DNA of 64,000 nt from an uncultured Gemmatimonadota bacterium (GCA_951812955.1 OX638340.1:1344001-1408000), one strand, 5' to 3'; numbered from the stretch's first letter, positions 4,570-25,492 are shown. Translations and numbers: made by a program. Notes: generated by a model from the letters alone, not told the origin.

Positions 4570-6087
4570 TTGACCGTCGGAGTGGTCTCAGTGAAAAGTA
4601 CCGAAATCCGTCCAATCTGGAATCCCCGTACCGGCATTGAAGGTCTTGACGGAGATCCCAATGAACTGAGTTCTTCCGAGATCCCCGGAATAAAAGCGAG
4701 CTGGACCGAGCAGCAGGAGCGGTTGAAGGACAAGGCCCAACTTTCTGACTTCACCGAGAAGTTGAGCCGGGAATGGGCAATAGAAACCGGTATTCTTGAG
4801 AATCTATACGAAATCGACCGTGGCGTCACGCAGACTCTCATCGAGCGGGGTTTTCAATCCGAAATTCTCAGCTACGGAACGACAAATAAGCCCCGAGAAT
4901 ACGTGATCCAACTCTTGCGAGATCAGAAGGAAGCCCTGGACGGCGTATTCGCGTTCGTCAAGAACGACCGGTCCCTCACTACGTCTTACATAAAAGAACT
5001 ACACGCGGCATTACTGCGCAACCAGCACACGACCGAGGCGCTCGACAGTCTGGGTAGAACAGTTGAAGTCCCGCTCCTCAAGGGAGACTGGAAAACCCAG
5101 CCCAACTACCCCGTCCGGGATGGCGTGACGTACAGCTACTGCCCGCCGGAACAGGTTAGTTCTGAGATGGACCGGTTGCTCGAGATGCATGAGGCGCAGG
5201 TCGAAAGCGGCGTGTCTGCCGAGGTACAGGCCGCTTGGCTGCATCATCGTTTCACCCAGATCCATCCCTTTCAAGATGGAAACGGACGCGTGGTCCGTGC
5301 GATCGCTTCACTGGTGCTCGTAAAGGAAGGACTTTTCCCGCTTGTGATAAGGAGGGACGACAGGGGCAGATACCTGGAAGCCCTCGAAGCCGCCGACCTC
5401 GGCGACCTGAACCCGCTTGTCATGCTGTTCACTGGACTGCAAAGAGATCAGTTCCTGAAGGCGACCAAGATATCTGAAGAACTACGTTTGGAAGAGGACG
5501 TGCAGGTAGTCTTGGACGGGCTGGACAGGGAAGCCCGCAGAATCGCAACGGAGAGGCTCAAGGCACACAGGGAGGTATTCGGTTTGGCCAGCGCTATCGA
5601 AAATGATCTAGAAGAACGTTTGAATACGATAGCAAAAGAAGTTTCGGGAGCACTAAATCAGGTAGCGTCCGGCGCAACTACATTCGTGCGAAGATCCGAC
5701 GAGAAAACGGATTATTTCTACAGGGCGCAGATCGTCAAGATTGCAAATGAACACATTGATTATTACGCCAATACGTCCGAATACCGATCATGGGTTTCAT
5801 TAAACATGCGATGGTCGCGTCGAGGGCAGTTGGTATTCGCGCTACACGGAATCGGCAAACCATTCAACGGTGGCCTTATCTGCGCGCCATTTCTGGAATT
5901 CAGAGATTACGACGATACCGACGAGGAGCACGGCGAGCGTCAATCAAATTCAACCCTCATTCCGGTCGCCGAGGAAGGTTTCGTTTTCTTCTACAACGAG
6001 GACAAGGATCGACTTCTCGGAAGGTTCAGGCCCTGGCGGGAAAACGTCCTCAAGATTGTCATAAAAGAACTCGCGCAAAACCTCTGA
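4570..6087 (+). CDS. fic: Fic family protein (AMPylase fold) with long C-terminal extension
   Basis: Canonical Fic motif HPFQDGNGRVVRAIASLVL in the middle of a 505-aa protein. TTG start at 4570; GTG 4591 with GGAG upstream is an alternative. About 50% GC, lower than the flanks. Confidence 0.8.
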   Translation: MTVGVVSVKSTEIRPIWNPRTGIEGLDGDPNELSSSEIPGIKASWTEQQERLKDKAQLSDFTEKLSREWAIETGILENLYEIDRGVTQTLIERGFQSEILSYGTTNKPREYVIQLLRDQKEALDGVFAFVKNDRSLTTSYIKELHAALLRNQHTTEALDSLGRTVEVPLLKGDWKTQPNYPVRDGVTYSYCPPEQVSSEMDRLLEMHEAQVESGVSAEVQAAWLHHRFTQIHPFQDGNGRVVRAIASLVLVKEGLFPLVIRRDDRGRYLEALEAADLGDLNPLVMLFTGLQRDQFLKATKISEELRLEEDVQVVLDGLDREARRIATERLKAHREVFGLASAIENDLEERLNTIAKEVSGALNQVASGATTFVRRSDEKTDYFYRAQIVKIANEHIDYYANTSEYRSWVSLNMRWSRRGQLVFALHGIGKPFNGGLICAPFLEFRDYDDTDEEHGERQSNSTLIPVAEEGFVFFYNEDKDRLLGRFRPWRENVLKIVIKELAQNL

Positions 6088-6947: not shown

Positions 6948-7088
6948 CCGGATGGGTCGGACGGACGGGATGACCGGACGATTCGAAACGAATTGCTATA
7001 AAAGTCCTGCTGGTGCCTACAGACGAAAGCCGAGTCCCGGGCAACCTGACTATCCGATTTCGTTGGCGTCCAGCGGGGATGAGCGTAA

Positions 7089-7568
7089 TCAGGCAGCCTT
7101 GCGATTCGGCAGTTTGCGCCTCATCATCACGCCTGGAAGCCGCTTCAGTCTTTCGTTGCGAGGATCGATCTCGAATCCGCCGGACTCCAGGGCCGTAACG
7201 CCAAGCAGCGGTTCCGTCCCTTCCGGGCCATACGCAATGGTCCCGCCAACGACCACGCCCTCGAATTCGATCTCGGCGACTGTTGCTTCCAGCGTGAGCT
7301 GTTTCCCGTCCGCGAGTACGTAGTCGCGACTCCCCCTCGGTTTGAGTCCAATCGCTTCGAGACGCTGCCTCGGTACGAGCGAGTCGAACGCGGCGGTATC
7401 GACAACGAACTTGCCGGTCCAGCTACGCCGTGGATCGGCGGGATTTCGGATCGTCACGTCGACATAAGTAGTCCCCATACTGAAATCCCTCCGGTGGGTA
7501 TCTCTTTCGATTGCACAAGTCAGATCTGATAATCCGTTGATCACCTTGTTAATATAGTCGTAATTCAT
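7089..7568 (-). CDS. retropepsin-like (clan AA) aspartic protease domain protein
   Basis: 159 aa with FVVDTAAFDSLVP resembling the hydrophobic-hydrophobic-D-T/S-G-A motif of bacterial retropepsin-like proteins. The Gly is replaced by Ala (DTA). Confidence 0.45.
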   Translation of the reverse strand: MNYDYINKVINGLSDLTCAIERDTHRRDFSMGTTYVDVTIRNPADPRRSWTGKFVVDTAAFDSLVPRQRLEAIGLKPRGSRDYVLADGKQLTLEATVAEIEFEGVVVGGTIAYGPEGTEPLLGVTALESGGFEIDPRNERLKRLPGVMMRRKLPNRKAA

Positions 7569-7812
7569 TTGGTATTCTATTCGGTAATTTCGCTGAAGCG
7601 CACAGCGATCGGTTCGCCGATGGATTACATTATGTCGGAGGATTGTTCACCCGATTCGTCTGGAACGCTTTGGGTGGGCCGCGAAACCGCTTCACCCGGA
7701 ATGCTTCGAATGGGTCTCGGCTCCGCCGGACTGCACGGATGACGGAGTTTTGCAGAACATTTGGTCCTTCATTCCGTCGCCGTTACCGTACCCATCCCAA
7801 ATCCTTGACACC

Positions 7813-7841
7813 GCCATCCCATTCTCCTTACTTCCCGTTGT
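7813..7841 (+). promoter_or_regulatory. putative sigma70-type promoter (copy 2)
   Basis: TTGACA (7813-7818), a 17-nt spacer, then TTACTT (7836-7841). Same arrangement as copy 1. Confidence 0.3.
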
Positions 7842-7961
7842 AAGTCCTGCCGCTGTGGTCCGGTCGGATCTGTGGCGTTGGAAGGTGGGACCAATTACGT
7901 AAGTCTTTCCTTTTGTTGAACGCACGGCATCGATCAGGTCGTACCGAAGGATAAGGTAGCT

Positions 7962-8246
7962 ATGCACGCTATAATCGAACAGAACCGCGCGGAAATCCTC
8001 GCCCTTGCCGAACGCCATGGCGTCGCCGACGTGCGCGTATTCGGGTCCATGGCGAGGGGCGACGCCGACGACGCCGGCGATGTCGACCTACTGGTGTCAC
8101 TGTCGCCTGGCAAAACAGGTCTTGCACTCGGAGCGCTGTTGATGGACGTGCAGGACCTCCTGCAACGACGTGTTGAAGTCTTAACGGAGAAAAGCCTTCA
8201 TCCTGCCCTCCGTGAAAACGTGTTGCGCGAGGCGCAGCCGTTATGA
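7962..8246 (+). CDS. mntA: nucleotidyltransferase-family antitoxin (MntA-like), second copy
   Basis: 94 aa, highly similar to 2687-2971 (GSMARGDADDAGDVDLLVSL). AGGATAAGG precedes the ATG. Confidence 0.75.
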   Translation: MHAIIEQNRAEILALAERHGVADVRVFGSMARGDADDAGDVDLLVSLSPGKTGLALGALLMDVQDLLQRRVEVLTEKSLHPALRENVLREAQPL

Positions 8247-8334
8247 AGTCAGACGCCTGGTCCGTAGAGTATCGCCCGAACACAACATTCCCGAATTAGC
8301 CAGGGCGATCGAGCGTATAGTTCATTCCACCTGA
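8243..8334 (+). pseudogene. hepT: hepT remnant (internal deletion)
   Basis: Starts ATGAAGTCAGACGCC like copy 1's hepT, then jumps to sequence matching copy 1's 3' end (CCAGGGCGATCGAGCG...TGA). Only about 30 codons remain. Confidence 0.65.
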
Positions 8335-8390
8335 TCCTTGAGAAGACCTCGCGGCCACGTGTCCTGCTGGCCGAGTGAAGGGTAATCATC

Positions 8391-8588
8391 ATGAATGTCA
8401 GTAAAGAAGAAAACACCAGACTCACTCCTTCGACAGTCAAACTCAAGCGGTTAATAGGGACCTCGCCTGCTCCTCGAATGTTGACGCCATACGAAATCAA
8501 GTTGCTGCGGCAAGCCGCGAAGGAAGTGGCCGAAGTTACGGAAGAAGTCCTCGCTGAGAAAGACAGTAGTAAGGAAGAAGGATGCTGA
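8391..8588 (+). CDS. small hypothetical protein (65 aa) overlapping the cas3 start
   Basis: ORF with about 48% GC, helical Lys/Glu-rich C-terminus. Its stop overlaps the cas3 ATG by 7 nt, suggesting translational coupling. No recognisable motif. Confidence 0.3.
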   Translation: MNVSKEENTRLTPSTVKLKRLIGTSPAPRMLTPYEIKLLRQAAKEVAEVTEEVLAEKDSSKEEGC

Positions 8589-11045
8589 CCTTCGAGCGGT
8601 TTTTCTCCACAGCGTTCGGTAAAGACGTTTGTCCTTTCGCCTATCAACAGGCTCTCGCAAAGCAGGCCTGGCCAGACGCGCTCATTGCTCCGACCGGCCT
8701 TGGCAAGACCGCCGCGGTGGTGCTTGGTTGGGCCTGGAAACACGCCGTAGTCGAATCTCCAACTCCACGTCGCCTCGTTTATTGCCTGCCTATGCGCACG
8801 CTCGTCGAGCAAACCGAGCGGAATGTCAGAGAATGGCTGCGTGAACTGGGCAAAGCAAATACGGACTGGAAATCACGCCTTCCGGACCCTGAAGCCGGAG
8901 TCCATGTCCTCATGGGCGGCATGGATGAGCCGCGCTGGTTTGAAACACCTGAACGACCGGCCATCCTGATCGGAACTCAAGATATGCTGATCAGCCGCGC
9001 CCTGATGCGGGGGTACGCCATGAGCCGCTTCCGCTGGCCAGTGGACTTCGCCTTGTTGCACAACGACGCGCAGTGGGTTTTTGACGAAGTGCAATTGATG
9101 GGAGCAGGCCTGGCGACCTCTACACAACTCGAAGGTTTTCGTCGTACGTTCGGAACGGAGATCCCTTCGTGCAGTCTCTGGGTGTCAGCGACCCTTCACC
9201 CGGACTGGCTACATACGGTTGATTTCCAGCAACGTCCTACGGTGTGGCGTGTTCCATGTGATTTCCCCGACGATATACATTCATCGCAAGTCCTCAAACT
9301 GATTAACGCGTGTAAGCCAATTCAGCCGTCGTCCGTCGCGCCGATGAGTGCCAAGAAGGCCGATCTGAACGCATACGCGACAGCGTTGGCGAAGGAAACC
9401 CGGAGTCTGCACCAAGAAAACAATACGACGCTTGTGGTACTCAATACAGTCGCCCGCGCCCAAGCCGTGCATAAAGCACTTCAGAAGATGGATGTTGCGC
9501 CTGCTTGCCTTGCTCTCATCCACTCGCGGTTTCGGCCTAAAGATCGCACCCGGCAGATGGACAAGTTGCCGCAAACCGGGGAAACAAAAAAACTGATCGT
9601 AGTCGCGACGCAGGCGATTGAAGCAGGTATCGATCTATCAGCGGCGGTCCTGCTCACCGAACTCGCGCCTCCTTCGTCCCTTACCCAGCGGTTCGGTCGG
9701 GTAAATCGCTACGGTGAGTTGAACGATTCCGGTGGCGGGACGGTCCGCTGGATAGATATCATCGGAGGCGACCTCGGTGATTCGTTGGCGGCTCCGTATG
9801 AGATTAACGAACTCAAAATCGGGCGCGAGCGGATTGCCGCGTTAAAGGACGCTCGGCCCTCTAATCTCGTGCCGCCCGCATCAGACGACTGCGCCTATCG
9901 GGGTGTGATACGATCCAGGGATATGCTGGACCTATACGACACCGATCCGGATTTGACCGGCTTTGATGTCGATATCGCTCCTTACGTCCGCGATGCTGAA
10001 GATACCGATATTCGAGTTTTCTGGCGCGATTTCGACGTGCAGTCTGGACCAGAGGACCAGACTGCACCCATGCGGGACGAGCTTTGTGCGGTTCCGATTG
10101 GGCGCGCGCGTAACTGGCTTAGGGATGTCAGAAAGAAGGAAGGGCAGCGGGTATTTCGCATAGACCCGCAGGCACGAGCTAATGGGAAGGGTAGCGTTCC
10201 GACTTGGACCGCGTTCCGAGAGGAACCGTGGCCGGGTTTGGTGTTGATGGTTCATGCGAGTGCTGGGGGTTATGCACCGGACACGGGGTTTGATCAGGGT
10301 CTAAAAACAGCAGTCGAGCCTGTGAAGCTAGGAGAGGAACAGCAGACGGCAGACGAGTCGAACGACGGCGATTCCGACAGCGAGCAGAGCAGGTGCGTGG
10401 AACTGACGGATCATCTGGACCACGTGGCTTTTGAAGCCAGATACCTATGCGATGGCCTCGACGTTTGTGAAGCTTGGAAAGCCACAATCCTCCAGGCAGC
10501 GTACTGGCACGACCTCGGTAAAGCACACCCTGAGTTTCAGGCGCGAATGGTTGCAAGTAACACGGAGGCCGACCCACCACCAGAAGGGTTGCTAGCCAAG
10601 GCTCCGAAGTACGACCGCACGAAAGGACGTGCATATTTCCGGCACGAACTTGCGTCTGCACTAGCATTTCTCACACAAGCAGGCTGGGTACGCAAGGCCG
10701 ATCTTGTTGCGTACCTGATAGCCGCCCATCACGGCAAGGTACGCCTGAACTTGCGTCCCCTACCAGCCGAAAGTCGGGTAATGGGGGAGGATGGACGGCG
10801 TTTTGCTCGCGGCGTGTGGGAGGGAGACGAGATACCGTTGGTTAGTTTGGGCAATGGGGAAACATGGACAGGGGGGCCACTCGCACTATCCGTGATGGAG
10901 TTAGGCGAGCATCCGGAAACTGGGGCAAGTTGGACCGAGCGTACGCGAAATTTGCTTTCCCAGTACGGTCCTTTTCAGCTCGCTTGGTTGGAGGCACTTG
11001 TACGTATCGCCGACTGGCGGGCATCAGCAAAAGAAGAACGAGGTC

Positions 11046-11062
<17 letters not shown>
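8582..11062 (+). CDS. cas3: Cas3 helicase-nuclease, type I-G architecture (helicase N-terminal, HD C-terminal)
   Basis: Walker A APTGLGKT near the N-terminus and a DEVQ (DExx-type) box with helicase C-motifs. The HD-nuclease motif AAYWHDLGKAHPEFQ sits at about residue 640, i.e. C-terminal as in I-G/I-U Cas3. Confidence 0.85.
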
Positions 11063-14598
<3,536 letters not shown>

Positions 14599-14605
14599 GT
14601 CTCGA

Positions 14606-16240
14606 ATGTTTGCACTTACTTTCACCTTTCCTTTGGGCCGCTATCACGCAACGCCGTGGGGGCGCCATGTCAACGAAGCCGATGTCGCTTGGCCGCCAGA
14701 GCCTTGGCGCATTCTTCGTGCGCTCGTCGCTACCTACTGGCGCAAAGGCGACCGGGTACGCTGGTCCGAGGACACACTCGCCCGTCTAGTAGACGCGCTA
14801 GCCCAGGATGCGCCGATCTATCACTTGCCCCCAGGCGTGATCCACGCACATACCCGGCATTACATGCCCACACCTAAAATGACGCTCGTCTTCGACGCCT
14901 TTGCCCACTTGTCTAAAGACGAACAGATCGTAGCGGCTTGGCCAGAACTCGAATTGGACGTCGAACTATTTGATTTGGCGGCTGATCTCGCAGAGGGGCT
15001 CGGCTACCTGGGGCGTGCCGAGAGTTGGGTTGAATGCGGAACGATAACCGACTGGAACCAAGATGTGGCAAACTGCCATCCTGTGGGCCAAAATGGGACC
15101 GCCCACGGGGAGATAGTGCGAGTGCTCACACCGCTCAGTGCTCAGGATTATATGGTGGAGCGTACGCGCCTGTTGGAGGAAGTTGACGATGCAGAGCGAG
15201 ACCGCACCGCTGCTTCCGGCAAGAGACCTCCTACCCCCAGAGCCCTTGAAAGGGCACGCAACAAAGCGTTCGGGCCGACCCTTCCTGATCGTCTGGTCGA
15301 AGCCTTGATGCTCGATACGGCCGATTACCAAAAATACCGTTGGAACCGACCGCCAGCCTCACGTGAGATTGTTTATACACGTCCGCCTCTGTCCCCTGTT
15401 CCTCGCCGTGCCCGGATTCGTGCAACAGTTGATGACCGCAGACAATTCACCGTAGCGCGCTTTCTTTTGGCCGGCCGTCCCCGACCTCGTATTGAGGATG
15501 CGGTCAAGATCGGTGAACTCATGCGGCTTGCCGCGCTTTCCAAGTTTGGTTGGGAGGACAAGAGACCCAGAGCACCGTCGGTGATATCAGGCCGGGGTTC
15601 TGATGGCCGACCATTACGCAACGGCCAGCATTCGCATGCGTTTTGGTTGCCCGAGGACGCCGATGGCGATGGCTGGATTGACCATATAACGGTTTACGCA
15701 GAGGAAGGTTTCGATGTTTCAGTGCGCGAGAAGCTGGATCGACTGACCCGTTTGTGGGTCGGTGGAGACGATTCCGGTGGAGAGGAAGGAGATAAAGAGA
15801 CCGGTCGCCAAGAGTGGCGACTGGCCTTGGAGGGCTTTGGCCGCCCGGAGGACTTTGCGGACACATCAAGGCTATTTAGCTGTTCAGATGAATGGGAAAG
15901 TGTAACACCTTTTTTGGCGTCTGGTCACTTAAAAAAGGCCGGGTATGAAGGCGAGATACATCGGCTTTGGAAGCGCAGACGAGTCACATCTGGTTCGCAT
16001 ACTGAGCCTGTACAGGTCGAAATCTTGCGCCACATCGAGATTCACGGTACTCTCCGTAGAGCAGTGCATTTTCATCGATTCCGTTCACGGGGACGAGAGA
16101 AGCAACCCGACGCGCAAGGGGCCTTGCTGCGCCTGAGTTTTAACGAGCCAGTTACAGGACCCTTAGCTCTTGGATATGCCTGCCATTTTGGTCTTGGAAT
16201 GTTCGCACGCCCAATCCTAGACGCAAAATCGGAACAATGA
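14606..16240 (+). CDS. cas5: Cas5-Cas6 fusion (Csb2/Cas5u-Cas6u family)
   Basis: 544 aa starting MFALTFTFPLGRYHATPW, the Cas5-like N-terminus of Csb2-family proteins. C-terminal half Gly-rich. Correct position for the I-G order. Confidence 0.65.
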   Translation: MFALTFTFPLGRYHATPWGRHVNEADVAWPPEPWRILRALVATYWRKGDRVRWSEDTLARLVDALAQDAPIYHLPPGVIHAHTRHYMPTPKMTLVFDAFAHLSKDEQIVAAWPELELDVELFDLAADLAEGLGYLGRAESWVECGTITDWNQDVANCHPVGQNGTAHGEIVRVLTPLSAQDYMVERTRLLEEVDDAERDRTAASGKRPPTPRALERARNKAFGPTLPDRLVEALMLDTADYQKYRWNRPPASREIVYTRPPLSPVPRRARIRATVDDRRQFTVARFLLAGRPRPRIEDAVKIGELMRLAALSKFGWEDKRPRAPSVISGRGSDGRPLRNGQHSHAFWLPEDADGDGWIDHITVYAEEGFDVSVREKLDRLTRLWVGGDDSGGEEGDKETGRQEWRLALEGFGRPEDFADTSRLFSCSDEWESVTPFLASGHLKKAGYEGEIHRLWKRRRVTSGSHTEPVQVEILRHIEIHGTLRRAVHFHRFRSRGREKQPDAQGALLRLSFNEPVTGPLALGYACHFGLGMFARPILDAKSEQ

Positions 16241-16444
16241 AACGCAGCATTTACAATGACACCTCAGTCATTGGAGTTTGTTATAGAGTTGTTTCAAGGA
16301 AGCTATAACTGTCGATCGATTCTTACATAATCTCGATGTTGTTCATACAGCCTTAAGTCGAGACGTATCCCTGGACCCACGACAGCTAAAACGTACGAAC
16401 ATTTTGCAGAACGAGTAGCCGCGAATACTTCAGCGACTCACCAC

Positions 16445-18157
16445 ATGAACCACATCCACCAACTCACGCTACCAATACCTCCGCCCCCAGTCGACGCGAA
16501 TACGCCATTGGTCCCAGCGCGCATGGTCAACGAATGGGTCTATTGCCCGCGACTGGCCTACCTGGAATGGGTTGAAGGAGAGTGGGCGGAGACGGGAGAC
16601 ACCGCCGAGGGACGGCGTACACACGTAAGGGTCGACGAAGGTGGCGGCCGTCTGCCCGGACCGGAAGAACTGGATGATGAGATGGCCCGCGCCCGGTCCG
16701 TCACGCTTTCGTCGGATCGTCTCGGCGTAATCGCCAAGATAGACGTCGTGGAAGCCGAAGAAGGAATCGTCACGCCCGTGGATTTCAAGAAAGGCAAGCG
16801 TCCCCATGTCGCCACTGGCGCCTACGAGCCCGAACGCGTCCAGATCTGCACGCAGGCCATGATCCTGGAGGACAATGGTTACAGAGTGGAGCGCGGTATG
16901 CTCTGGTACGCCGGGTCGCGTGAGCGCGTCCCGGTGATGCTTGACGATGAACTTCGATCCCTGACCCTGGCGGCAATCAGAGAATTGCGCGTCGCCGCGG
17001 CTGATGGCCGTCGGCCACCGCCTCTGGAAAACAGCCCGAAGTGCCCCCGCTGTGCCCTGGCGGGGATCTGTCTGCCCGACGAAACCAACCTGTTCCGCAA
17101 AGGGACTGCACCACGCCCGCTGAACCCATCGGATGATCCGGCCCTGCCGCTCTACGTACAGGAACCGGGGGCGCGACTGCGAAAGAGCGGTGAGCGCTTG
17201 GTGGTGGAAATCAAGGAAGAATCCGTAGAGGTACCCATAATCGACGTTTCCCAGGTCGCTCTGTTCGGCCCCGTCTCGGTGACCACACCGGCTCTGCACG
17301 CGCTGATGAACGCGGAGATTCCGGTATCGTGGTTTTCCACGGGAGGCTGGTTCCTCGGCCATACAGTAGGAACAGGGCATGGAAACGTGGCCGTTCGCGA
17401 AGCGCAATACCGCGTAGCCTTCGATAAAGGCGCTCGCCTTGCCTTCGCGCGCGATCTCGTGGCGGCTAAGGCGCGTAACGCCCGTACGATGTTGCGTCGC
17501 AACTGGCGCGTCAATATGGACGCGGAAATCAGGGATGAAGCCCTAGTCCGGCTCAGGGGAGTCGTGCGCCGCATCTCCCGCGCCACGGACGAAAGCCAAC
17601 TGCTGGGCCTGGAAGGCGAGGCCGCCGCAGTGTATTTCAACTGCTTCGAGCACATGCTTGCTAAGGATCTGGACGGCGGCGCGACGGGGTTCTCCTTCAC
17701 CAAGCGCAATCGGCGGCCTCCCACGGATCCGGTGAACGCGCTCCTGTCGCTGGCCTACGCTTTGTTGACGCGGGTATTCACTACGACCATCTCGGCGACG
17801 GGGCTCGACCCCTACATGGGCCTCTACCACCATACGCGCCACGGGCGCCCGGCGCTGTCCCTCGATCTAATGGAACCGTTCAGACCTATTGTCGCCGACT
17901 CCTGCGTTATTCAAGCCATCAACAACGGCGAAGTAAAGCTGGCCGATTTCGTGTTCAACGGGGCTGCTTGTTCGCTGAAGCCTGCTGGTCGCAAGTCCTT
18001 CATCGCCGCGTTCGAGCGGCGCATGGAGCAGGAGACCACACATCCGCTTTTCGGCTATCGCGTTTCCATGCGGCGACTTATCGAGGTACAGTCCCGATTG
18101 CTCGCCCGGCATTTTCAGGGAGAGATCGTCTCTTACCCTCATTATCTTCCCCGGTAG
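16445..18157 (+). CDS. cas4: Cas4-Cas1 fusion
   Basis: N-terminal Cas4 RecB-like domain with Cys cluster (YCPRLAYLEW ... CPRCALAGICLP). C-terminal Cas1 (GLDPYMGLYHHTRHGRPALSLDLMEPFRPIVAD). An alternative start at M26 (16520) is possible. Confidence 0.85.
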   Translation: MNHIHQLTLPIPPPPVDANTPLVPARMVNEWVYCPRLAYLEWVEGEWAETGDTAEGRRTHVRVDEGGGRLPGPEELDDEMARARSVTLSSDRLGVIAKIDVVEAEEGIVTPVDFKKGKRPHVATGAYEPERVQICTQAMILEDNGYRVERGMLWYAGSRERVPVMLDDELRSLTLAAIRELRVAAADGRRPPPLENSPKCPRCALAGICLPDETNLFRKGTAPRPLNPSDDPALPLYVQEPGARLRKSGERLVVEIKEESVEVPIIDVSQVALFGPVSVTTPALHALMNAEIPVSWFSTGGWFLGHTVGTGHGNVAVREAQYRVAFDKGARLAFARDLVAAKARNARTMLRRNWRVNMDAEIRDEALVRLRGVVRRISRATDESQLLGLEGEAAAVYFNCFEHMLAKDLDGGATGFSFTKRNRRPPTDPVNALLSLAYALLTRVFTTTISATGLDPYMGLYHHTRHGRPALSLDLMEPFRPIVADSCVIQAINNGEVKLADFVFNGAACSLKPAGRKSFIAAFERRMEQETTHPLFGYRVSMRRLIEVQSRLLARHFQGEIVSYPHYLPR

Positions 18158-18162
18158 CGACT

Positions 18163-18456
18163 ATGGCCAACGAACGTCTCTACATCGTCGCCTACGACAT
18201 ATCCGAGCCAAAGCGATGGCGGCGCGTGTACAAGCTGATGAAAGGCTATGGGCACTGGTTGCAGTTGTCGATTTTCCAGTGCAGGCTCACGGCCCGGCGA
18301 CGCGCGGAAATGACCGCTCGTCTGGAGGAATCGATCGATCTGTCGGAGGACCACATTCTGATCGTGGACATGGGTCCCGCGGACAAAGTGGATCCATTGG
18401 TAGAAAGCCTGGGCAAGGCATATGAAGCGCCGACTCGAAAAGCCACCGTCGTGTAG
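18163..18456 (+). CDS. cas2: Cas2
   Basis: 97 aa MANERLYIVAYDISEPKRWRRVYKLMKGYGHWLQLSIFQC, typical Cas2. Starts 5 nt after the cas4-cas1 stop. The ORF track's longer 17968 start is an out-of-context extension. Confidence 0.85.
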   Translation: MANERLYIVAYDISEPKRWRRVYKLMKGYGHWLQLSIFQCRLTARRRAEMTARLEESIDLSEDHILIVDMGPADKVDPLVESLGKAYEAPTRKATVV

Positions 18457-18665
18457 CCGTGCCTTTGCCGGGTCCTCCGCGAACGCTCCGGTGGAAGGGA
18501 AATGCCGGGCAGCGCTCGCGTCCTGGTATTTGTTTGTTCTGCATGGAGTTACGAGGCATTGTAACTGATTTCGGGGAGGGCGATTTGAATGTCCGTGAGA
18601 TTTTAGCAGCAGTGCTCGCAAAAGGCCTGACAAGCCTAAGTCTGCCAAAGAGTTGCTAAGGAACT
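18457..18665 (+). promoter_or_regulatory. CRISPR leader
   Basis: About 210-bp AT-richer non-coding region between cas2 and the first perfect repeat. Degenerate repeats are at the opposite end of the array. Confidence 0.5.
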
Positions 18666-21271
18666 ATTTCCGGGGCTGCGCAGCCCCGGCCTCATTGAAG
18701 CGCCGCCATATCGATCCGGATAGAAGGTTGTCCGTTCGATTTCCGGGGCTGCGCAGCCCCGGCCTCATTGAAGCACCATATGCCGGCGCGGTGATTGGGT
18801 ATTTGCGGCACGATTTCCGGGGCTGCGCAGCCCCGGCCTCATTGAAGCATCCGTCATCATAAAACCCCCGTAAATGGCCATAGGGATTTCCGGGGCTGCG
18901 CAGCCCCGGCCTCATTGAAGCCGTCGTCGCGATGGCGGTGTTCGGTGGCAACCTGTGATTTCCGGGGCTGCGCAGCCCCGGCCTCATTGAAGCCACCAGA
19001 ATACCCATGCGGCCGATAACGAGGTGCTGCTTATTTCCGGGGCTGCGCAGCCCCGGCCTCATTGAAGCCGATCCTTCCGCGAAGTGTCCGGCCTGCACCG
19101 CTCCATTTCCGGGGCTGCGCAGCCCCGGCCTCATTGAAGCATGAGTTGACGCTCCGAGATACCCAGCAGCGTCGCGAGATTTCCGGGGCTGCGCAGCCCC
19201 GGCCTCATTGAAGCCGGAAGATGTTGCTCCCCTGGCCGTCGGTGAAGAAGTTATTTCCGGGGCTGCGCAGCCCCGGCCTCATTGAAGCCGGAAGATGTTG
19301 CTCCCCTGGCCGTCGGTGAAGAAGTTATTTCCGGGGCTGCGCAGCCCCGGCCTCATTGAAGCGAGAAGATCTCCCCGGATAACGTGGACGACCCCACCGG
19401 CATTTCCGGGGCTGCGCAGCCCCGGCCTCATTGAAGCCGGTTGGCCTCCGGGTCCGGCTCGGTTTCGTGCGGTTGATTTCCGGGGCTGCGCAGCCCCGGC
19501 CTCATTGAAGCTTGGAAGCCATGATGGCCTTGGTGCCCAGGGCGAGCGCCATTTCCGGGGCTGCGCAGCCCCGGCCTCATTGAAGCTAGGCCTCCTCGCT
19601 GGCGAATCCCATCTTGTACCACTATTTCCGGGGCTGCGCAGCCCCGGCCTCATTGAAGCTCGTACACGTGGGCGGTGGTCAGCACCACCTTGGAACCGGA
19701 TTTCCGGGGCTGCGCAGCCCCGGCCTCATTGAAGCGTCGGTTTCGTCCTCGGTGTCGCGGTGACGACGCTCTATTTCCGGGGCTGCGCAGCCCCGGCCTC
19801 ATTGAAGCATCAAACACACCCTTCAAGCGTAAACATAGGCCCTGGATTTCCGGGGCTGCGCAGCCCCGGCCTCATTGAAGCCCATCAGTGTGGTCGACTG
19901 CTGCCTGCGTGTGCTGGAGAAATTTCCGGGGCTGCGCAGCCCCGGCCTCATTGAAGCCCATCAGTGTGGTCGACTGCTGCCTGCGTGTGCTGGAGAAATT
20001 TCCGGGGCTGCGCAGCCCCGGCCTCATTGAAGCATGCACATCTCGAAGTCACAGGACCAGACACAGGTGACGATTTCCGGGGCTGCGCAGCCCCGGCCTC
20101 ATTGAAGCCACGGAAGGCAGCCAGGGTCGCACCGCTGGCACCCAGATTTCCGGGGCTGCGCAGCCCCGGCCTCATTGAAGCCAAGCAATCGAACGCAAGC
20201 ACAAGCGGACGCTCGACCATTTCCGGGGCTGCGCAGCCCCGGCCTCATTGAAGCTAAGGGTATTGTCCAGGACGATGACCTGAATGAATATATTTCCGGG
20301 GCTGCGCAGCCCCGGCCTCATTGAAGCCTGTGCAAAACGCGCGGTACTTGAAATTGGCCCGTGTCATTTCCGGGGCTGCGCAGCCCCGGCCTCATTGAAG
20401 CGTGATTGATCAATTTCGAGATTAACCGTTATTTCCTCCATTTCCGGGGCTGCGCAGCCCCGGCCTCATTGAAGCAGGAACACGTGGAAGAGGTAGGAGC
20501 AGACGCGAAACCATTTCCGGGGCTGCGCAGCCCCGGCCTCATTGAAGCGAAGCTCCTGTTGAGTCTGTGAACGACTGGACGGGTTAATTTCCGGGGCTGC
20601 GCAGCCCCGGCCTCATTGAAGCGATGCAATCAGAAACCTCCTTCATCGTCGCATCCTGATATTTCCGGGGCTGCGCAGCCCCGGCCTCATTGAAGCGATT
20701 CATCGTTGGCGTTGTCGTCCACCTCCTCGGCGAGGTATTTCCGGGGCTGCGCAGCCCCGGCCTCATTGAAGCCAAGTTGACAGACATAGGAATCCAGCCT
20801 TACGCGTCCACATTTCCGGGGCTGCGCAGCCCCGGCCTCATTGAAGCTCTGAAAAAGACCTGTTGCTCCACCCCATCGAGGACGTATTTCCGGGGCTGCG
20901 CAGCCCCGGCCTCATTGAAGCGCCTTGTCGCGGATAGCCCTTGCCTGCTCCTCCAAAGCCATTTCCGGGGCTGCGCAGCCCCGGCCTCATTGAAGCCTCC
21001 AACACCAGCAACAGCACGGCAGGGTCCCTGGGCATTTCCGGGCTGCGCAGCCCCGGCCTCATTGAAGCGAATCTCCCTCCAGCGGGTTGCAGTCCTTCAG
21101 GTCCTGGGTTTCCGGGGCCGCACGGCCCCGGCCTCATTGAAGCGAGATCCCCCCGGACCCTGGTAAGGCGTCGGCGGGCAGTGTTTCCGGGGCCGCTCGG
21201 CCCCGGCCTCATTGAAGCTCGGATCCTAACTACGACCTGTTCATTATCAATTGCGTTTCCGGGCTGCGCGG
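18666..21271 (+). CRISPR. CRISPR array: 35 repeats of 36 bp (ATTTCCGGGGCTGCGCAGCCCCGGCCTCATTGAAGC) plus a partial terminal repeat; 34 spacers of 36-40 bp
   Basis: Repeats start at 18666, 18739, 18813 ... 21183 with 73-76 bp periodicity. The repeat contains the palindrome GGGGCTGCGCAGCCCC and the ATTGAAGC 3' handle typical of I-C/I-G-like repeats. Distal repeats 33-35 are mutated (GGGCTGCG, GCCGCACGGC, GCCGCTCGGC), with a repeat fragment at 21255-21271. Confidence 0.95.
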
Positions 21272-21340
21272 CGAGGATCGTGGGCCCTGATCCAGGGCTT
21301 TTAGACGTTTCGTTTCCAGACAGACTGATTTCAACGTATA

Positions 21341-24300
21341 ATGAATATCAGGAAACACCGTAACACTCATCATCCTCGACGCATTTCGCAAAGGAATTGT
21401 GCCTTGAGGTTTCTTGTCGTTCCCGTCGTCCTCTCGATCATTATCCTTCCGTCGTGCGGCAGGGAAAGCCCCACGGGACCGCCGCAGGCGGCCAGCATCA
21501 GGATATCGCCGGCCGAGGCCGTGCTGGACGCCATTGGCGCGACCGTGCAGCTCACTGCGTCGGTCCGGGACGGGAACGATCGGGAGGTACCGGACGCTGC
21601 CGTGACGTGGACCAGCGGTAACACCGAAGTGGCCAGCGTGACTGACGAGGGCCTGGTCACGGCCCGGAAGAACGGTTCCGCAGTCATCACGGCCGTTTCA
21701 GGGCAATTCCAAGCGAATGCCGCAGTCACGGTATCGCAGGCGGTCGCTAACATCGAGGTTGCGCCCGCCAGCGTGTCGCTGACGAAGACGGACGGGGCTC
21801 TGCGGGTCGACGCAGTGGTGAAAGACAGGAAAGGCAACCTGGTGGCGAACGCGCTGCTCGTCTGGACAAGCAGCGATCCCTTCGTCGTCTCAGTGAACGC
21901 CCTGGGAGTCCTCGAGGCGCGGTCGAACGGAAACGCCCGGATCACCGTGTCTTCAGGGGACGTATCGACAAGCGTGGAAGTCACGGTCTCGGGTTTCGGA
22001 CCGGATGCGCTGGACCGCGTCGCCCTGGTCGCGCTGTTCAACGAAACGGGCGGACCGGGATGGACGCTCGCCACAAACTGGTCGAGCGACTCGCCCCTGG
22101 CCGAGTGGCACGGGGTGGCGACCGATGCCGAAGGAAGGGTGATCGAATTGTTGCTCGACGGGAACGGCCTGAAGGGCGCGATCCCGGAGGAACTGGTCCG
22201 GCTGACAAGGCTCCGAGCTCTTTCCCTCGCACGCAATCAGTTGACAGGAAGCATACCCCCCGGAATCGGACGACTCGCCAGACTGGAGGTGCTGGAGGTT
22301 TCCTACAACCGTTTGACGGGAAGCATACCCCCCGAATTCGGACGACTCACCAGACTCAGGGAACTCGGCGCCAACGGCAACAACTTCTCGCCCGGGCCAT
22401 TGCCCCGGGCTATGACCAATCTCGACAACCTCGAGTTCCTGGGACTCGCGGGAACATCGCTGTGCGCGCCGCTCGACGCAGATTTCCAGGCCTGGCTCGG
22501 CGCGATAGACGACGTTGAAGTGGACAACTGCGAGGACATGGAGCGGAGCGCGCTGATCGCGTTGTACAACGCGACGGACGGAGGAAACTGGACCGAACGG
22601 GACAATTGGCTCACCGGCGTGCCCCTGAGCGCCTGGCACGGAGTTGCGACAAATGACCAGGGCCAGGTAACGGGCTTGGATCTGGCAGACAACAACCTGA
22701 GGGGAACACTGCCGACCCGACTGAGCGATCTCCGGTCTCTGAGCGGTTTGGACCTGTCCAACAACTCCGGGCTGACGGGACCGCTGCCCGTGTCGCTTGG
22801 CAGTCTCAGTCTAACGGCCCTCAAACTAGGCGGAACGGATCTATGCGCGCCGCTGGACCCCGCTTATCAGGCCTGGCTGGCCGCCATCGGGGACATACGG
22901 GTCGCTGGCTGTCCCGCCGACATCGCCCCCGACCGGGTGGCGTTGACCGCGCTATACGGCGAAACGGGCGGTGCGTACTGGAAGGAGTCCGCCAACTGGC
23001 TCGGCGAAGCGCCATTGCGAGACTGGTACGGCGTCGAGACCGACGCCGAAGGGCGTGTGACCTCCATTGACCTGAGGTACAATAACCTGAGGGGGCGGCT
23101 GCCTCCGGAATTGGCGCTGATCGACAGGCTGGAAGCGTTGCGTCTTGCCGGCAACGGCCTGACGGGGCAGATACCGCCAGAACTCGCGCGCCTCGACCGA
23201 CTCTCTGCGTTGGATCTTTCGGTGAACCTGCTGACGGGCTCCATTCCACCGGAACTGGGCCGACTGGCAGACCTCTCCGTCCTTGATCTCTCCGCCAACG
23301 GATTGACCGGGTCCGTTCCACCCCAACTGGGACGACTCGACCGACTATCCGTCCTCGACCTCCGACTCAACCGGTTACACGGCCCCGTTCCGTCCGAACT
23401 GGGGAACCTCCGCAGCCTCGGGCGACTGGCACTCTCCTCCAACGAGTTGACCGGCCGCGTGCCGCCGGAACTGGGATTATTGGCAAACCTCTCCGTCCTC
23501 GACCTCAGACTCAATCGGTTACACGGCCCCGTACCACCCGAACTGGGACGACTCGCAAACCTCAAGGAACTGAATCTCGCCAGGAACGGCTTTACGGGCC
23601 CCGTTCCACCCGAACTGGGACGGCTCCCAAACCTCGAGGATCTGGAACTCTCCACCAACGAGTTGACGGGCCCCGTTCCGCCCGAACTGGGACGACTCGC
23701 AAACCTCAAGGAACTGAATCTCGCCACCAACGGCCTGACGGGCCCCGTTCCGCCCGAACTGGGACGACTCGCAAACCTCGTCACGCTGAGCCTGGCGTCG
23801 AATCAGCTGACGGGATCGGTCCCGCCCGAACTGGGACGACTCGCAAATCTCGTCACGCTGAGTCTTTCCGGTAACGCCGCGCTGTCGGGGACGTTGCCGC
23901 GCGCGTTGCTCAACCTCGACCTGGCCTCCCTGCTCCTGGCCGGTACGCGCCTCTGCGCGTCCCGGGACGTGGAGACTCAGGCTTGGTTGCGGGATATCGA
24001 TGAAAGGCGCGTTTCCGACTGCGGCGATTCCGTCCCGCTTATTATGTCTGCGTATCTCACACAGGCGGTGCAGTCCCTCGAAAATCCAGTGCCGCTGGTT
24101 GCCGGCAAGCCCGCGCTCCTGCGCGTATTCTTAACGAACGGCGGCATGGCCGACGCCAAACGGCCGCCGGTACGCGCTACATTCTACCGGAACGACCTTC
24201 CAGTGCACACGACCGAGATATCGGGCGGAGACGATAGACTGCCGGACAGTCCGGAGGAAGGACAACTCGCGGCTTCATCCAACGCCGCGATACCGGCCGA

Positions 24301-25492
24301 AGTCGTTCGGCCGGGCCTGGAAATGGTGATAGAAATCGATCCCGGCAGCATACCGGATTCCGCTTTGGACATCGGTCGCCGCCTGCCGTCTACCGGACGG
24401 TTGGCTTTGGAGGTGGTGGAGGTGCCGCCCCTCCATCTTACCCTGGTCCCGTTTCTGTGGTCGTCGAATCCGGACCGGACGCTCGCGGATTACGCCTCGG
24501 GCCTGTCGTCCGATGACGAACTGTTCAGGATGACCCGGGAAACGTTGCCGGTTGGTGATTTCCATCTGACCGTGCGCGAGCCCGTCTGGACCTCGGTGGT
24601 ATCCGAGGCGAAGAACACCATATCGATCCTGGTTGAGGTCTATGTGGTTCGCATCCTGGACGGCGCCCGGGGACATTATATGGGTATCCTCCCTGCCGGA
24701 GAACGGGTGGGCGTTGCCGCCATCCCGGGATACTTCGGTGTGGCGGCGCTGAACGGACGCATCATTGCCCATGAACTCGGACACAACATGAACCTGGGGC
24801 ACGCGCCGTGCGGCGACCCGGCCGGGGTGGACCCCGACTACCCCTACTTCGACGGGACTACCGGCGCATGGGGCTACGACGTCCTGTCGGAATCATTGGT
24901 GTCGCCGCAAAACTTCGACTTGATGAGTTACTGCCTCCCCAATGGGATCAGTGACTTCCACTTCGTCAAGGCGCTGATTTACCGGCGGTCCGAGGAAACG
25001 CCCGTTCCAGCAGCGCGCGCCGCTTCCGCGACCAACCTGCTGCTATGGGGCGAAGTGAACGAGTTTACGGAAACCGTCCTCCATCCTGCCTTCGTGGTCG
25101 ACGCCCCGCCCGCCCTGCCGGAGACCGGCGGTCCGTATCGCATCACCGGTGAAGACGGAGCAGGGAACACGCTGTTCGCGCTGTCCTTCGGCGCGGTGGA
25201 AGTCGCGGACGGGGCCGGGAGTGTTTTCGCGTTCGTCCTTCCCGTCCAGGAGGACTGGCTCGATCGATTGCATCGGATCGCGTTATCCGGCCCGGACGGG
25301 GTGAAGACGGTAGATCGAAGAGGAGGGTCGGCCGCCGCGATCATGTTAGACCGGACGACCGGAACGGTCCGGGGCATCCTCCGAGACTGGCCCGACCAGG
25401 GCGGCTCTCAGCCGTTCGCGCGGCGCGTGCTGCCGGACGGTGATTTCGAAGTCCTGGTCAGCCACGGCATCCCAGATTCGAATCCCCGGTAA
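21341..25492 (+). CDS. large secreted lipoprotein: Big_2 Ig-like domains + about 20 plant-type LRRs + C-terminal metzincin (reprolysin-like) zinc protease
   Basis: Lipobox LPSCG. Three Ig-like Big_2 segments (VTWTSGNTEVASV...). Repeated 24-aa LRR units (LxxLxLxxNxLTGxIPPELGRLxxL) in four blocks capped by Cys motifs (LCAPLD...C). HELGHNMNLGH zinc site plus a Met-turn (DLMSYC) in the C-terminal domain. Confidence 0.75.
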   Translation: MNIRKHRNTHHPRRISQRNCALRFLVVPVVLSIIILPSCGRESPTGPPQAASIRISPAEAVLDAIGATVQLTASVRDGNDREVPDAAVTWTSGNTEVASVTDEGLVTARKNGSAVITAVSGQFQANAAVTVSQAVANIEVAPASVSLTKTDGALRVDAVVKDRKGNLVANALLVWTSSDPFVVSVNALGVLEARSNGNARITVSSGDVSTSVEVTVSGFGPDALDRVALVALFNETGGPGWTLATNWSSDSPLAEWHGVATDAEGRVIELLLDGNGLKGAIPEELVRLTRLRALSLARNQLTGSIPPGIGRLARLEVLEVSYNRLTGSIPPEFGRLTRLRELGANGNNFSPGPLPRAMTNLDNLEFLGLAGTSLCAPLDADFQAWLGAIDDVEVDNCEDMERSALIALYNATDGGNWTERDNWLTGVPLSAWHGVATNDQGQVTGLDLADNNLRGTLPTRLSDLRSLSGLDLSNNSGLTGPLPVSLGSLSLTALKLGGTDLCAPLDPAYQAWLAAIGDIRVAGCPADIAPDRVALTALYGETGGAYWKESANWLGEAPLRDWYGVETDAEGRVTSIDLRYNNLRGRLPPELALIDRLEALRLAGNGLTGQIPPELARLDRLSALDLSVNLLTGSIPPELGRLADLSVLDLSANGLTGSVPPQLGRLDRLSVLDLRLNRLHGPVPSELGNLRSLGRLALSSNELTGRVPPELGLLANLSVLDLRLNRLHGPVPPELGRLANLKELNLARNGFTGPVPPELGRLPNLEDLELSTNELTGPVPPELGRLANLKELNLATNGLTGPVPPELGRLANLVTLSLASNQLTGSVPPELGRLANLVTLSLSGNAALSGTLPRALLNLDLASLLLAGTRLCASRDVETQAWLRDIDERRVSDCGDSVPLIMSAYLTQAVQSLENPVPLVAGKPALLRVFLTNGGMADAKRPPVRATFYRNDLPVHTTEISGGDDRLPDSPEEGQLAASSNAAIPAEVVRPGLEMVIEIDPGSIPDSALDIGRRLPSTGRLALEVVEVPPLHLTLVPFLWSSNPDRTLADYASGLSSDDELFRMTRETLPVGDFHLTVREPVWTSVVSEAKNTISILVEVYVVRILDGARGHYMGILPAGERVGVAAIPGYFGVAALNGRIIAHELGHNMNLGHAPCGDPAGVDPDYPYFDGTTGAWGYDVLSESLVSPQNFDLMSYCLPNGISDFHFVKALIYRRSEETPVPAARAASATNLLLWGEVNEFTETVLHPAFVVDAPPALPETGGPYRITGEDGAGNTLFALSFGAVEVADGAGSVFAFVLPVQEDWLDRLHRIALSGPDGVKTVDRRGGSAAAIMLDRTTGTVRGILRDWPDQGGSQPFARRVLPDGDFEVLVSHGIPDSNPR

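Follow-up and report, generated by a model that had tools for sequence, protein, structure and literature searches.

A predicted lipoprotein joining plant-type leucine-rich repeats to an M66-like metzincin module, from a very large protein family of marine-sponge symbionts

A 64,000-nucleotide stretch of DNA from an uncultured Gemmatimonadota bacterium (GCA_951812955.1 OX638340.1:1344001-1408000), referred to here as the window, carries on its plus strand a long gene that begins shortly after the end of a CRISPR array. The predicted product comprises, in order, a lipoprotein-type signal peptide, two immunoglobulin (Ig)-like domains, three capped blocks of leucine-rich repeats (LRRs) and a C-terminal protease module. 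The Ig-like, plant-type LRR and metzincin protease parts named in a first-pass annotation of the DNA are all present, as judged from Pfam, from sequence matches in PDB and from predicted folds, and within a very large family of marine-sponge symbionts the gene is nothing out of the ordinary.

The open reading frame spans 21341..25492 (+), has 1383 codons and is the longest in its region. While the frame itself is as first described, its length is probably 21 residues too great. The true start is most likely TTG 21404 rather than ATG 21341, an alternative start that adds 21 residues, because orthologs begin at the codon homologous to TTG 21404 and nearly all are 1362 aa long, the length counted from that codon. 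A search with the N-terminal 862 residues found ~45 ortholog clusters (76-92% identical, nearly all exactly 1362 aa), the best ortholog (P0266) being 92% identical over 1362/1362 residues, gap-free, and itself called from TTG. The ortholog in related locus L001 starts with ATG-CGG-TTT-CTT (MRFLVV...) aligned to window TTG 21404, L002-L004 likewise have ATG at the homologous codon, and ATG 21341 is common only to L002 and the ortholog contig L082. The most likely coding sequence (21404..25492, +, stop codon included in the coordinates) encodes 1362 aa, and the mature protein is unaffected by the choice between the two starts. A chance reading frame or a pseudogene was rejected in view of the full-length gap-free orthologs and a ratio of non-synonymous to synonymous substitution rates (dN/dS) well below 1. 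In L001 the ortholog is split into genes of 703 aa and 673 aa by one extra base (L001 9692) relative to the window, which may be a recent pseudogene or an assembly error.

The predicted signal peptide, (M)RFLVVPVVLSIIILPS-C, is of the lipoprotein type (21404..21457, +), with the codon of the putatively lipidated Cys at 21455-21457 and the mature protein beginning at the Cys of ...IILPS-C-GRES. The lipobox of the window protein (L-P-S-C) has Pro at -2, outside the usual set [LVI][ASTVI][GAS]C, though the Cys and the hydrophobic core are kept across orthologs with lipoboxes LASC (L001), LSTC (L004) and LSSC (P0266), and the Cys also stands in the family consensus. The earlier assignment as a lipoprotein is plausible on these grounds. 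Neither Pfam nor NCBIfam reports a sorting signal for the window protein, be it a type IX secretion C-terminal sorting domain or another.

The two Big_2 Ig-like domains (21491..21991, +) are matched in two stretches by Pfam PF02368 (aa 51-217, E 1.8e-16, 60.3 bits versus a gathering score of 22.8) and appear as two β-sandwiches in the model; a homologous pair is found in 47/80 related loci. The region that follows (aa ~260-870) matches LRR_1, LRR_8, LRR_4 and LRR_14 in Pfam (E 1e-42 to 3e-26) and contains ~21 LRR units (LxxLxLxxNxLTGxIPPELGRLxx) that recur strictly every 24 residues and fall into three blocks (5, 3 and 13 units). By repeat parsing and the model, every block has an N-cap at its front and, at its end, a cap repeat followed by a two-Cys C-cap; ahead of the cap repeat, block 1 (22004..22531, +; N-cap helix, C-cap LCAPLD...C) has 4 repeats, block 2 (22535..22912, +) has 2, and block 3 (22919..24022, +; C-cap LCASRD...C) has 12 of the plant-type 24-residue kind. 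The motif at the opening of each block is DRxAL.AL...W...NW...PL..W.GV, that at its close L.L.GT.LCAPLD..FQAWL......V..C, and the block 3 consensus positions L1, L4, L6, N9, L11, G13, P16, L19 and L22 are each kept in 10-12/12 repeats.

Among PDB sequences, the best matches for aa 222-895 are the plant receptor ectodomains GSO1 (3e-159) and FLS2 (1.6e-134), then MIK2, BRL2, PEPR1, PSKR1 and BRI1, with bacterial Leptospira LRR proteins scoring far below. The model of aa 39-900 (predicted local distance difference test score, pLDDT, 90.8) shows two β-sandwiches and three solenoids, each solenoid capped by a helix at both ends, and all of the top 50 Foldseek matches of this N-terminal model in PDB (50/50) are plant receptor ectodomains. 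The proposed resemblance of the Cys-capped LRR blocks to plant receptor-kinase ectodomains is thus borne out by both sequence and predicted fold. The window protein and the plant ectodomains (GSO1, FLS2, MIK2, ERL1, BRI1) have in common the 24-residue repeat LxxLxLxxNxLTGxIPxELGxLxxL and an N-terminal capping helix with a conserved W..GV motif. In contrast to the plant receptors, the window protein has no transmembrane or kinase part, its N-cap lacks the plant Cys pair (Pfam LRRNT_2 is not reported), its C-cap LCAPxD..FQxWL....C is specific to its own family, and three short solenoids take the place of one long plant superhelix. The Xanthomonas effectors XopL, XopAC/AvrAC and XopAE likewise join bacterial plant-type LRRs to an enzymatic domain, and the best NCBIfam matches to the window LRR region are XopAC (4e-41) and XopAE (7e-40), far below cut-offs (141 vs 450 bits). 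The Xop effectors, however, are injected into the host cytoplasm and carry E3-ligase or Fic domains, whereas the window protein has a Sec/lipoprotein signal and a protease. Over orthologs and paralogs, variability at the x positions of LxxLxLxxNxL is 2.7-3.1 bits vs 0.2-0.7 bits at scaffold positions, and nearly all LRR variation falls at these x positions plus a few convex ones, a pattern compatible with variable ligand surfaces.

The protease module (24026..25489, +; 488 aa) is predicted to consist of an N-terminal β-sandwich, a metzincin catalytic domain and a C-terminal β-sandwich. It contains the zinc-binding motif HELGHNMNLGH (24770..24802, +; aa 1144-1154) and the Met-turn LMSYC (24920..24934, +; aa 1194-1198). 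The AlphaFold2 model of the module, built from a 51-sequence alignment, has a pLDDT of 88.7 and a predicted template-modelling (TM) score of 0.90, and includes the metzincin catalytic fold and a three-dimensional arrangement like that of StcE (family M66), the best structural match of the metzincin module. Foldseek with the whole three-domain module was uninformative (best match a fragilysin-type MPII, E 1e-3, TM ~0.2). Pfam Peptidase_M66 (PF10462) scores 26.5 bits with the whole protein and 28.3 bits with the module, vs a gathering score of 20.6; among family members, 49/51 match Pfam M66 (best E 1.4e-10) and 24/51 match Reprolysin_3, and some relatives bear the name 'M66 family metalloprotease' at NCBI. 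With the fold predicted, M66 above its gathering score and HExxHxxNxxH intact, the C-terminal metzincin with Met-turn described in the first-pass annotation is upheld.

Active-site conservation was counted over 96 copies from 80 loci. The H, E, H and H residues are invariant in 96/96 copies, and the Met-turn keeps its Met in 95, its Tyr in 94 and its Cys in 94 of the 96. Asn is tolerated at position 8 of the metzincin zinc motif; this position is Asn in the window protein, and among the 96 copies Ser (45) and Asn (33) outnumber Gly (7). The metzincin motif has been written with Gly at position 8 (PMC7542363). The predicted fold, together with conservation of the zinc motif and Met-turn, makes the metzincin label right. 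The family-level label is best given as 'M66-like', since homology to StcE is visible only in the modelled structure and in the active-site helix. The extreme C-terminus of the family is also highly conserved (...SRGIPDxAxWxR, with a near-invariant Trp); the window protein (25447-25489) and its closest ortholog end in ...S(H/R)GIPDSNPR, which lacks the Trp, and the segment could be structural or a sorting signal.

Several features set the module apart from the known enzymes it most resembles. StcE (E. coli O157) and TagA (V. cholerae) are mucin-type O-glycoproteases of MEROPS family M66, but the window module is only 16% identical in the structural alignment and the Pfam likeness does not reach beyond the region of the active-site helix. 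At motif position 8 the window protein has Asn, and the family has Ser or Asn for the most part rather than Gly. The window protein has no StcE-type insertion domain and instead has Big_2 modules, LRR modules and a lipoprotein signal, unlike StcE and TagA, which are listed as type II secretion substrates. Compared with the adamalysin/reprolysin family M12B (snake-venom metalloproteinases, ADAM, ADAMTS), no prodomain or cysteine switch is recognised in the window protein and there are no disintegrin or Cys-rich domains; the third His is followed by Ala-Pro rather than the Asp of M12B, and the Met-turn context is LMSY with a near-invariant Tyr.

The active-site counts, together with the selection acting on the gene, bear on whether the protein is mainly an adhesin or an immune-evasion decoy, with LRR and Ig domains mediating sponge-cell attachment or recognition, a function suggested for other eukaryotic-like repeat proteins, and the protease inactive or secondary. 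Compared with L082 and L002-L004, dN/dS of the LRR-protease gene is 0.32-0.41 overall, with similar values for the LRR and protease parts, and that of the protease module is 0.29-0.36, so that purifying selection on the module matches that on the remainder of the protein. The protease module is, moreover, the most conserved and defining part of the family. In favour of a decoy, a survey of sponge symbionts (PMC8163846) cites a report that repeat proteins of such bacteria let E. coli escape phagocytosis, and at NCBI orthologs are named only 'Ig-like domain-containing protein'. The zinc ligands and catalytic Glu kept in every copy, and the Met-turn in all but one, argue the other way, and because the active site is perfectly conserved an adhesin-only role is disfavoured; we regard it as quite improbable.

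Sequence comparison also indicates that the gene is functional and that its protein evolves faster than those of its neighbours. Against L001, L003 and L004 its dN/dS (0.31-0.33) is the highest, the values for nine neighbouring genes being 0.04-0.23. Surface and interaction proteins often evolve faster. The dS of the LRR-protease gene (21404-25489) against the same three loci (0.37-0.39) is lower than that of most neighbours (0.40-0.66), while its dN is the highest or nearly so; the low dS could reflect codon constraints in the repeats, gene conversion or recombination.

The family to which the gene belongs was delimited with protein searches and with genome stretches. With proteins clustered at 50% identity, the protease module retrieves 8,678 cluster representatives at E<=1e-3, of which 2,193 reach E<=1e-30; the best 150 all have E <1e-204, are 510-2750 aa long and carry the module always at the C-terminus. 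The word-indexed protein search scores 8,000 candidates each time, and with the protease module as query it missed ~45 close orthologs that the N-terminal query found, so that, in a family this large, a protein missing from a match list need not be truly absent. Among GTDB species representatives at least 552 stretches encode relatives. In the 79 related loci kept, the open reading frames run mostly to 900-2500 aa and contain numerous plant-type repeats along with 1-5 Cys caps, tandem copies are frequent, and single chromosomes contribute at least 3 loci. Tandem arrays of two to five or more copies occur in L011, L021, L025, L030, L035/L080, L036 and L067 (Gemmatimonadota, Acidobacteriota and unclassified chromosomes assembled from sponge metagenomes). 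The layout of signal, Big_2 pair, capped LRR blocks and C-terminal protease recurs in most of the 79 loci and in thousands of database proteins, and so the architecture, at first called unusual, is standard for the family. Whether this might be a common housekeeping family of the lineage had also been raised: common it is, but it is not a housekeeping one, and the metzincin fold is not lacking.

The carriers point to sponges. P0266, the closest ortholog, lies on MKWU01015731.1 of whole-genome shotgun project MKWU00000000, an Aplysina aerophoba sponge metagenome (Horn et al. 2016). The four loci L001-L004 cluster with the window; L003 and L004 are labelled Candidatus Latescibacterota, and other orthologs are Gemmatimonadetes at NCBI. 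Further carriers are Ca. Palauibacter irciniicola and ramosifaciens, Longimicrobiales, and metagenome-assembled genomes (MAGs) of Acidobacteriota, Chloroflexota and Gammaproteobacteria, and the bin labels SB06xx, IRC and RHO of relatives resemble sponge-host series (hosts read from the labels alone). Papers gave no match of the OZ, OY and OX chromosome records to named sponge hosts. The sponge-symbiont origin of the closest ortholog, and the names or bin labels of many relatives, fit the interaction with a eukaryotic host that the first-pass annotation had held possible. In a rough neighbour-joining tree, copies from Acidobacteriota, Gammaproteobacteria and Chloroflexota and one Latescibacterota copy are nested among Gemmatimonadota copies, a phylum-mixed pattern that agrees with lateral transfer of LRR genes in sponge MAGs (PMC8163846). 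Sponge MAGs are reported to be enriched in genes for LRR and other eukaryote-like repeat proteins, and in CRISPR-Cas, with lateral transfer of these genes (PMC8163846), and LRR proteins are abundant in Latescibacterota, Acidobacteriota and Gemmatimonadota (PMC8163846; PMC12993501). The window protein matches the eukaryotic-like LRR proteins of sponge symbionts in ecology and taxa, while the published surveys count repeat domains only; in the literature library searched, no paper was found that connects these LRR proteins with a protease domain of the M66 or metzincin type, and looking for M66, StcE or metzincin in the context of sponge symbionts gave nothing relevant. A search for links to mobile elements found no relatives among IMG/VR viral contigs and only one distant plasmid match, from Thermus thermophilus.

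Taken together, the sequence features and structural models make it fairly probable that the window gene encodes an exported, lipid-anchored zinc metalloprotease of a sponge symbiont, whose LRRs would bind extracellular, probably host, proteins or glycoproteins for cleavage. Sec export and lipidation would leave the protein on an N-terminal lipid tether, probably at the outer membrane or cell surface, with the Big_2 Ig domains serving as a stalk. The variable concave faces of the LRRs would bind particular extracellular (glyco)proteins, most plausibly sponge cell-surface or mesohyl matrix components, and the protease module would then cleave the LRR-bound targets. By analogy, its working may resemble that of StcE, TagA and the ADAM sheddases, with LRRs replacing glycan-binding or disintegrin domains as the targeting part.

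A number of observations weigh against this interpretation. The M66 match covers only aa 1139-1189 around HELGHNMNLGH, corresponding to profile positions 193-244 (52/306). A profile of 51 relatives compared with all PDB sequences at E<=10 did not retrieve StcE and yielded only adamalysins (E >=0.011), and a single-sequence search of the protease module against solved structures found nothing. As whole-domain sequence homology to StcE was not found and the Pfam match is short, StcE-like glycoprotein specificity is not to be assumed; glycoproteases are in any case not distinguishable from ordinary proteases by sequence (PMC7542363). Variable x positions are normal for any LRR protein, the window lipobox has its non-canonical Pro at -2, and surface exposure is not predictable. 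Distant homologs of the protease module occur outside sponges, for example an 'M66 family metalloprotease' on the Thermus thermophilus plasmid (32% identity). Finally, two oligopeptide-binding proteins encoded just downstream in orthologous loci fit a purely nutritional role equally well.

That role is the main rival: a protease that digests proteins of the sponge mesohyl or of filtered food, with the downstream solute-binding proteins capturing the peptides and the LRRs acting as generic sticky or spacer domains. Downstream of the LRR-protease gene lie genes for a peptidoglycan-type M23 peptidase and for two solute-binding proteins of family 5; LpxB and a KdtA-LpxK fusion come further along and mark the organism as diderm. 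In the window, L001, L003 and L004 alike, the M23 peptidase gene is followed by the two SBP_bac_5 genes, and host-derived organic matter is a presumed resource of sponge symbionts (PMC8163846), as nutrition from bulk proteolysis would have it. However, such solute-binding neighbours occur in none of the other 76 related loci, and L002, the closest GTDB relative, is without them; the M23 protein is of the peptidoglycan endopeptidase type and no peptide ABC permease is adjacent. An enzyme for bulk digestion would also not usually have three capped LRR modules, such heavily diversified paralogs or a raised dN/dS. We therefore consider a nutritional protease unlikely, though less so than an adhesin. 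A conserved operon with the M23 and SBP_5 genes was likewise considered and rejected, the neighbours being found only in orthologous loci.

The targeted, lipid-anchored metalloprotease may extend beyond the window. It is a tentative and, on balance, doubtful proposal that many of the 'LRR eukaryotic-like proteins' of sponge symbionts are LRR-guided metzincins, a diversifying, laterally exchanged arsenal in which each paralog would cleave a different sponge surface, matrix or immune (glyco)protein. If so, the arsenal would let symbionts avoid phagocytosis or remodel the mesohyl, and would represent, in bacteria, a lipid-anchored equivalent of the ADAM sheddases made with plant-type LRRs. The family is notable in that it is huge, multi-copy and spread over several sponge-symbiont phyla, with the active site intact in every copy examined. 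The protease domain of the family can easily be overlooked, since its match to Pfam M66 is weak as well as short and numerous database entries go only by 'Ig-like domain-containing' or 'hypothetical'. Until now, counts of domains have been the main ground for inferring what eukaryotic-like proteins do in sponge symbiosis, and if the LRRs direct cleavage of host proteins these proteins would gain a concrete, testable biochemical activity.

Upstream of the gene, the CRISPR array (18666 to ~21290) has a 36-nt repeat in 35 copies plus a decayed remnant (21255-21290), its terminal repeats decaying, and ends 50 bp before ATG 21341 and 113 bp before TTG 21404. It is preceded by a complete type I-G system (Cas3g, Cas8g1/Csx17, Csb1, Csb2, Cas4g/Cas1g and Cas2; cas genes 8582-18456). 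The 3' end of the repeat (ATTGAAGC), the decay of the last repeats and the order of the cas genes suggest that the array is transcribed towards the LRR-protease gene. In L001 (~85% DNA identity), Amidohydro_2, PhyH, LRR-protease, M23, two SBP_5, ABC (ATP-binding cassette), HlyD, lactonase and LpxB genes stand in the same order, with 135 bp in place of the window's 14.4 kb of cas genes and array (window 6956-21379); L003 and L004 are likewise without any CRISPR. L002 has an array of the same repeat, but there the array and the LRR-protease gene are separated by a PhyH remnant and by the homolog of window 7089-7568, a gene for a clan-AA aspartic protease. Because L001, L003 and L004 are without the island and L002 has it placed differently, the adjacency of array and gene is best read as a lineage-specific insertion of a type I-G island. 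The position directly after the array, given in the first-pass annotation, is correct, but the adjacency carries no functional meaning.

A functional tie to CRISPR-Cas, whether as co-transcribed defence-island cargo or through a role in phage or inter-bacterial conflict, is accordingly very improbable. The gene does lie on the same strand, 50-113 bp after the trailer end of the array with no terminator-like site between, and an array is nearby in L002 too. Yet L001, L003 and L004 keep the order PhyH, LRR-protease, M23 without cas genes or array, another gene separates array and LRR-protease gene in L002, no such link was retrieved with other related loci, and the search of the IMG/VR viral contigs gave no relatives.

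The expression signals lie in the short interval after the array. A Shine-Dalgarno-like AAAGGAA (21390..21396, +), 7 nt before TTG 21404, is kept in L001, L004 and L082. A sigma-70-like match, TTTCCA-18-TATAAT (21313..21342, +; 10/12 matches), is identical in L082 and only partly kept in L002-L004; its -10 element overlaps ATG 21341, and as a promoter it would leave a ~55-nt leader holding the Shine-Dalgarno sequence. The earlier expectation of a promoter within ~70 bp of the array end is matched in position, the sigma-70-like site lying within 50 bp of that end, but this is a consensus match only and, with no terminator-like site found in the stretch between array and gene, read-through from the array is as possible as transcription from the gene's own promoter.

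Some further features of the surrounding DNA were noted. In L002 the type I-G locus appears to truncate PhyH, and this intergenic region looks like a recurrent insertion site. The clan-AA retropepsin-like aspartic protease gene (window 7089-7568, -) is kept beside the LRR-protease gene in L002-L004. An MntA-like nucleotidyltransferase antitoxin (window 7962-8246, +), below the NCBIfam cut-off, precedes cas3 directly. Within the array, two pairs of adjacent repeat-spacer units with identical spacers (D1, window 19179-19326; D2, window 19846-19995) represent tandem unit duplications. Between Amidohydro_2 and PhyH, a gene for a 505-aa Fic-domain protein (window 4570-6087) occupies the place of a small DUF2283 gene in L001, a second indel between the two loci.

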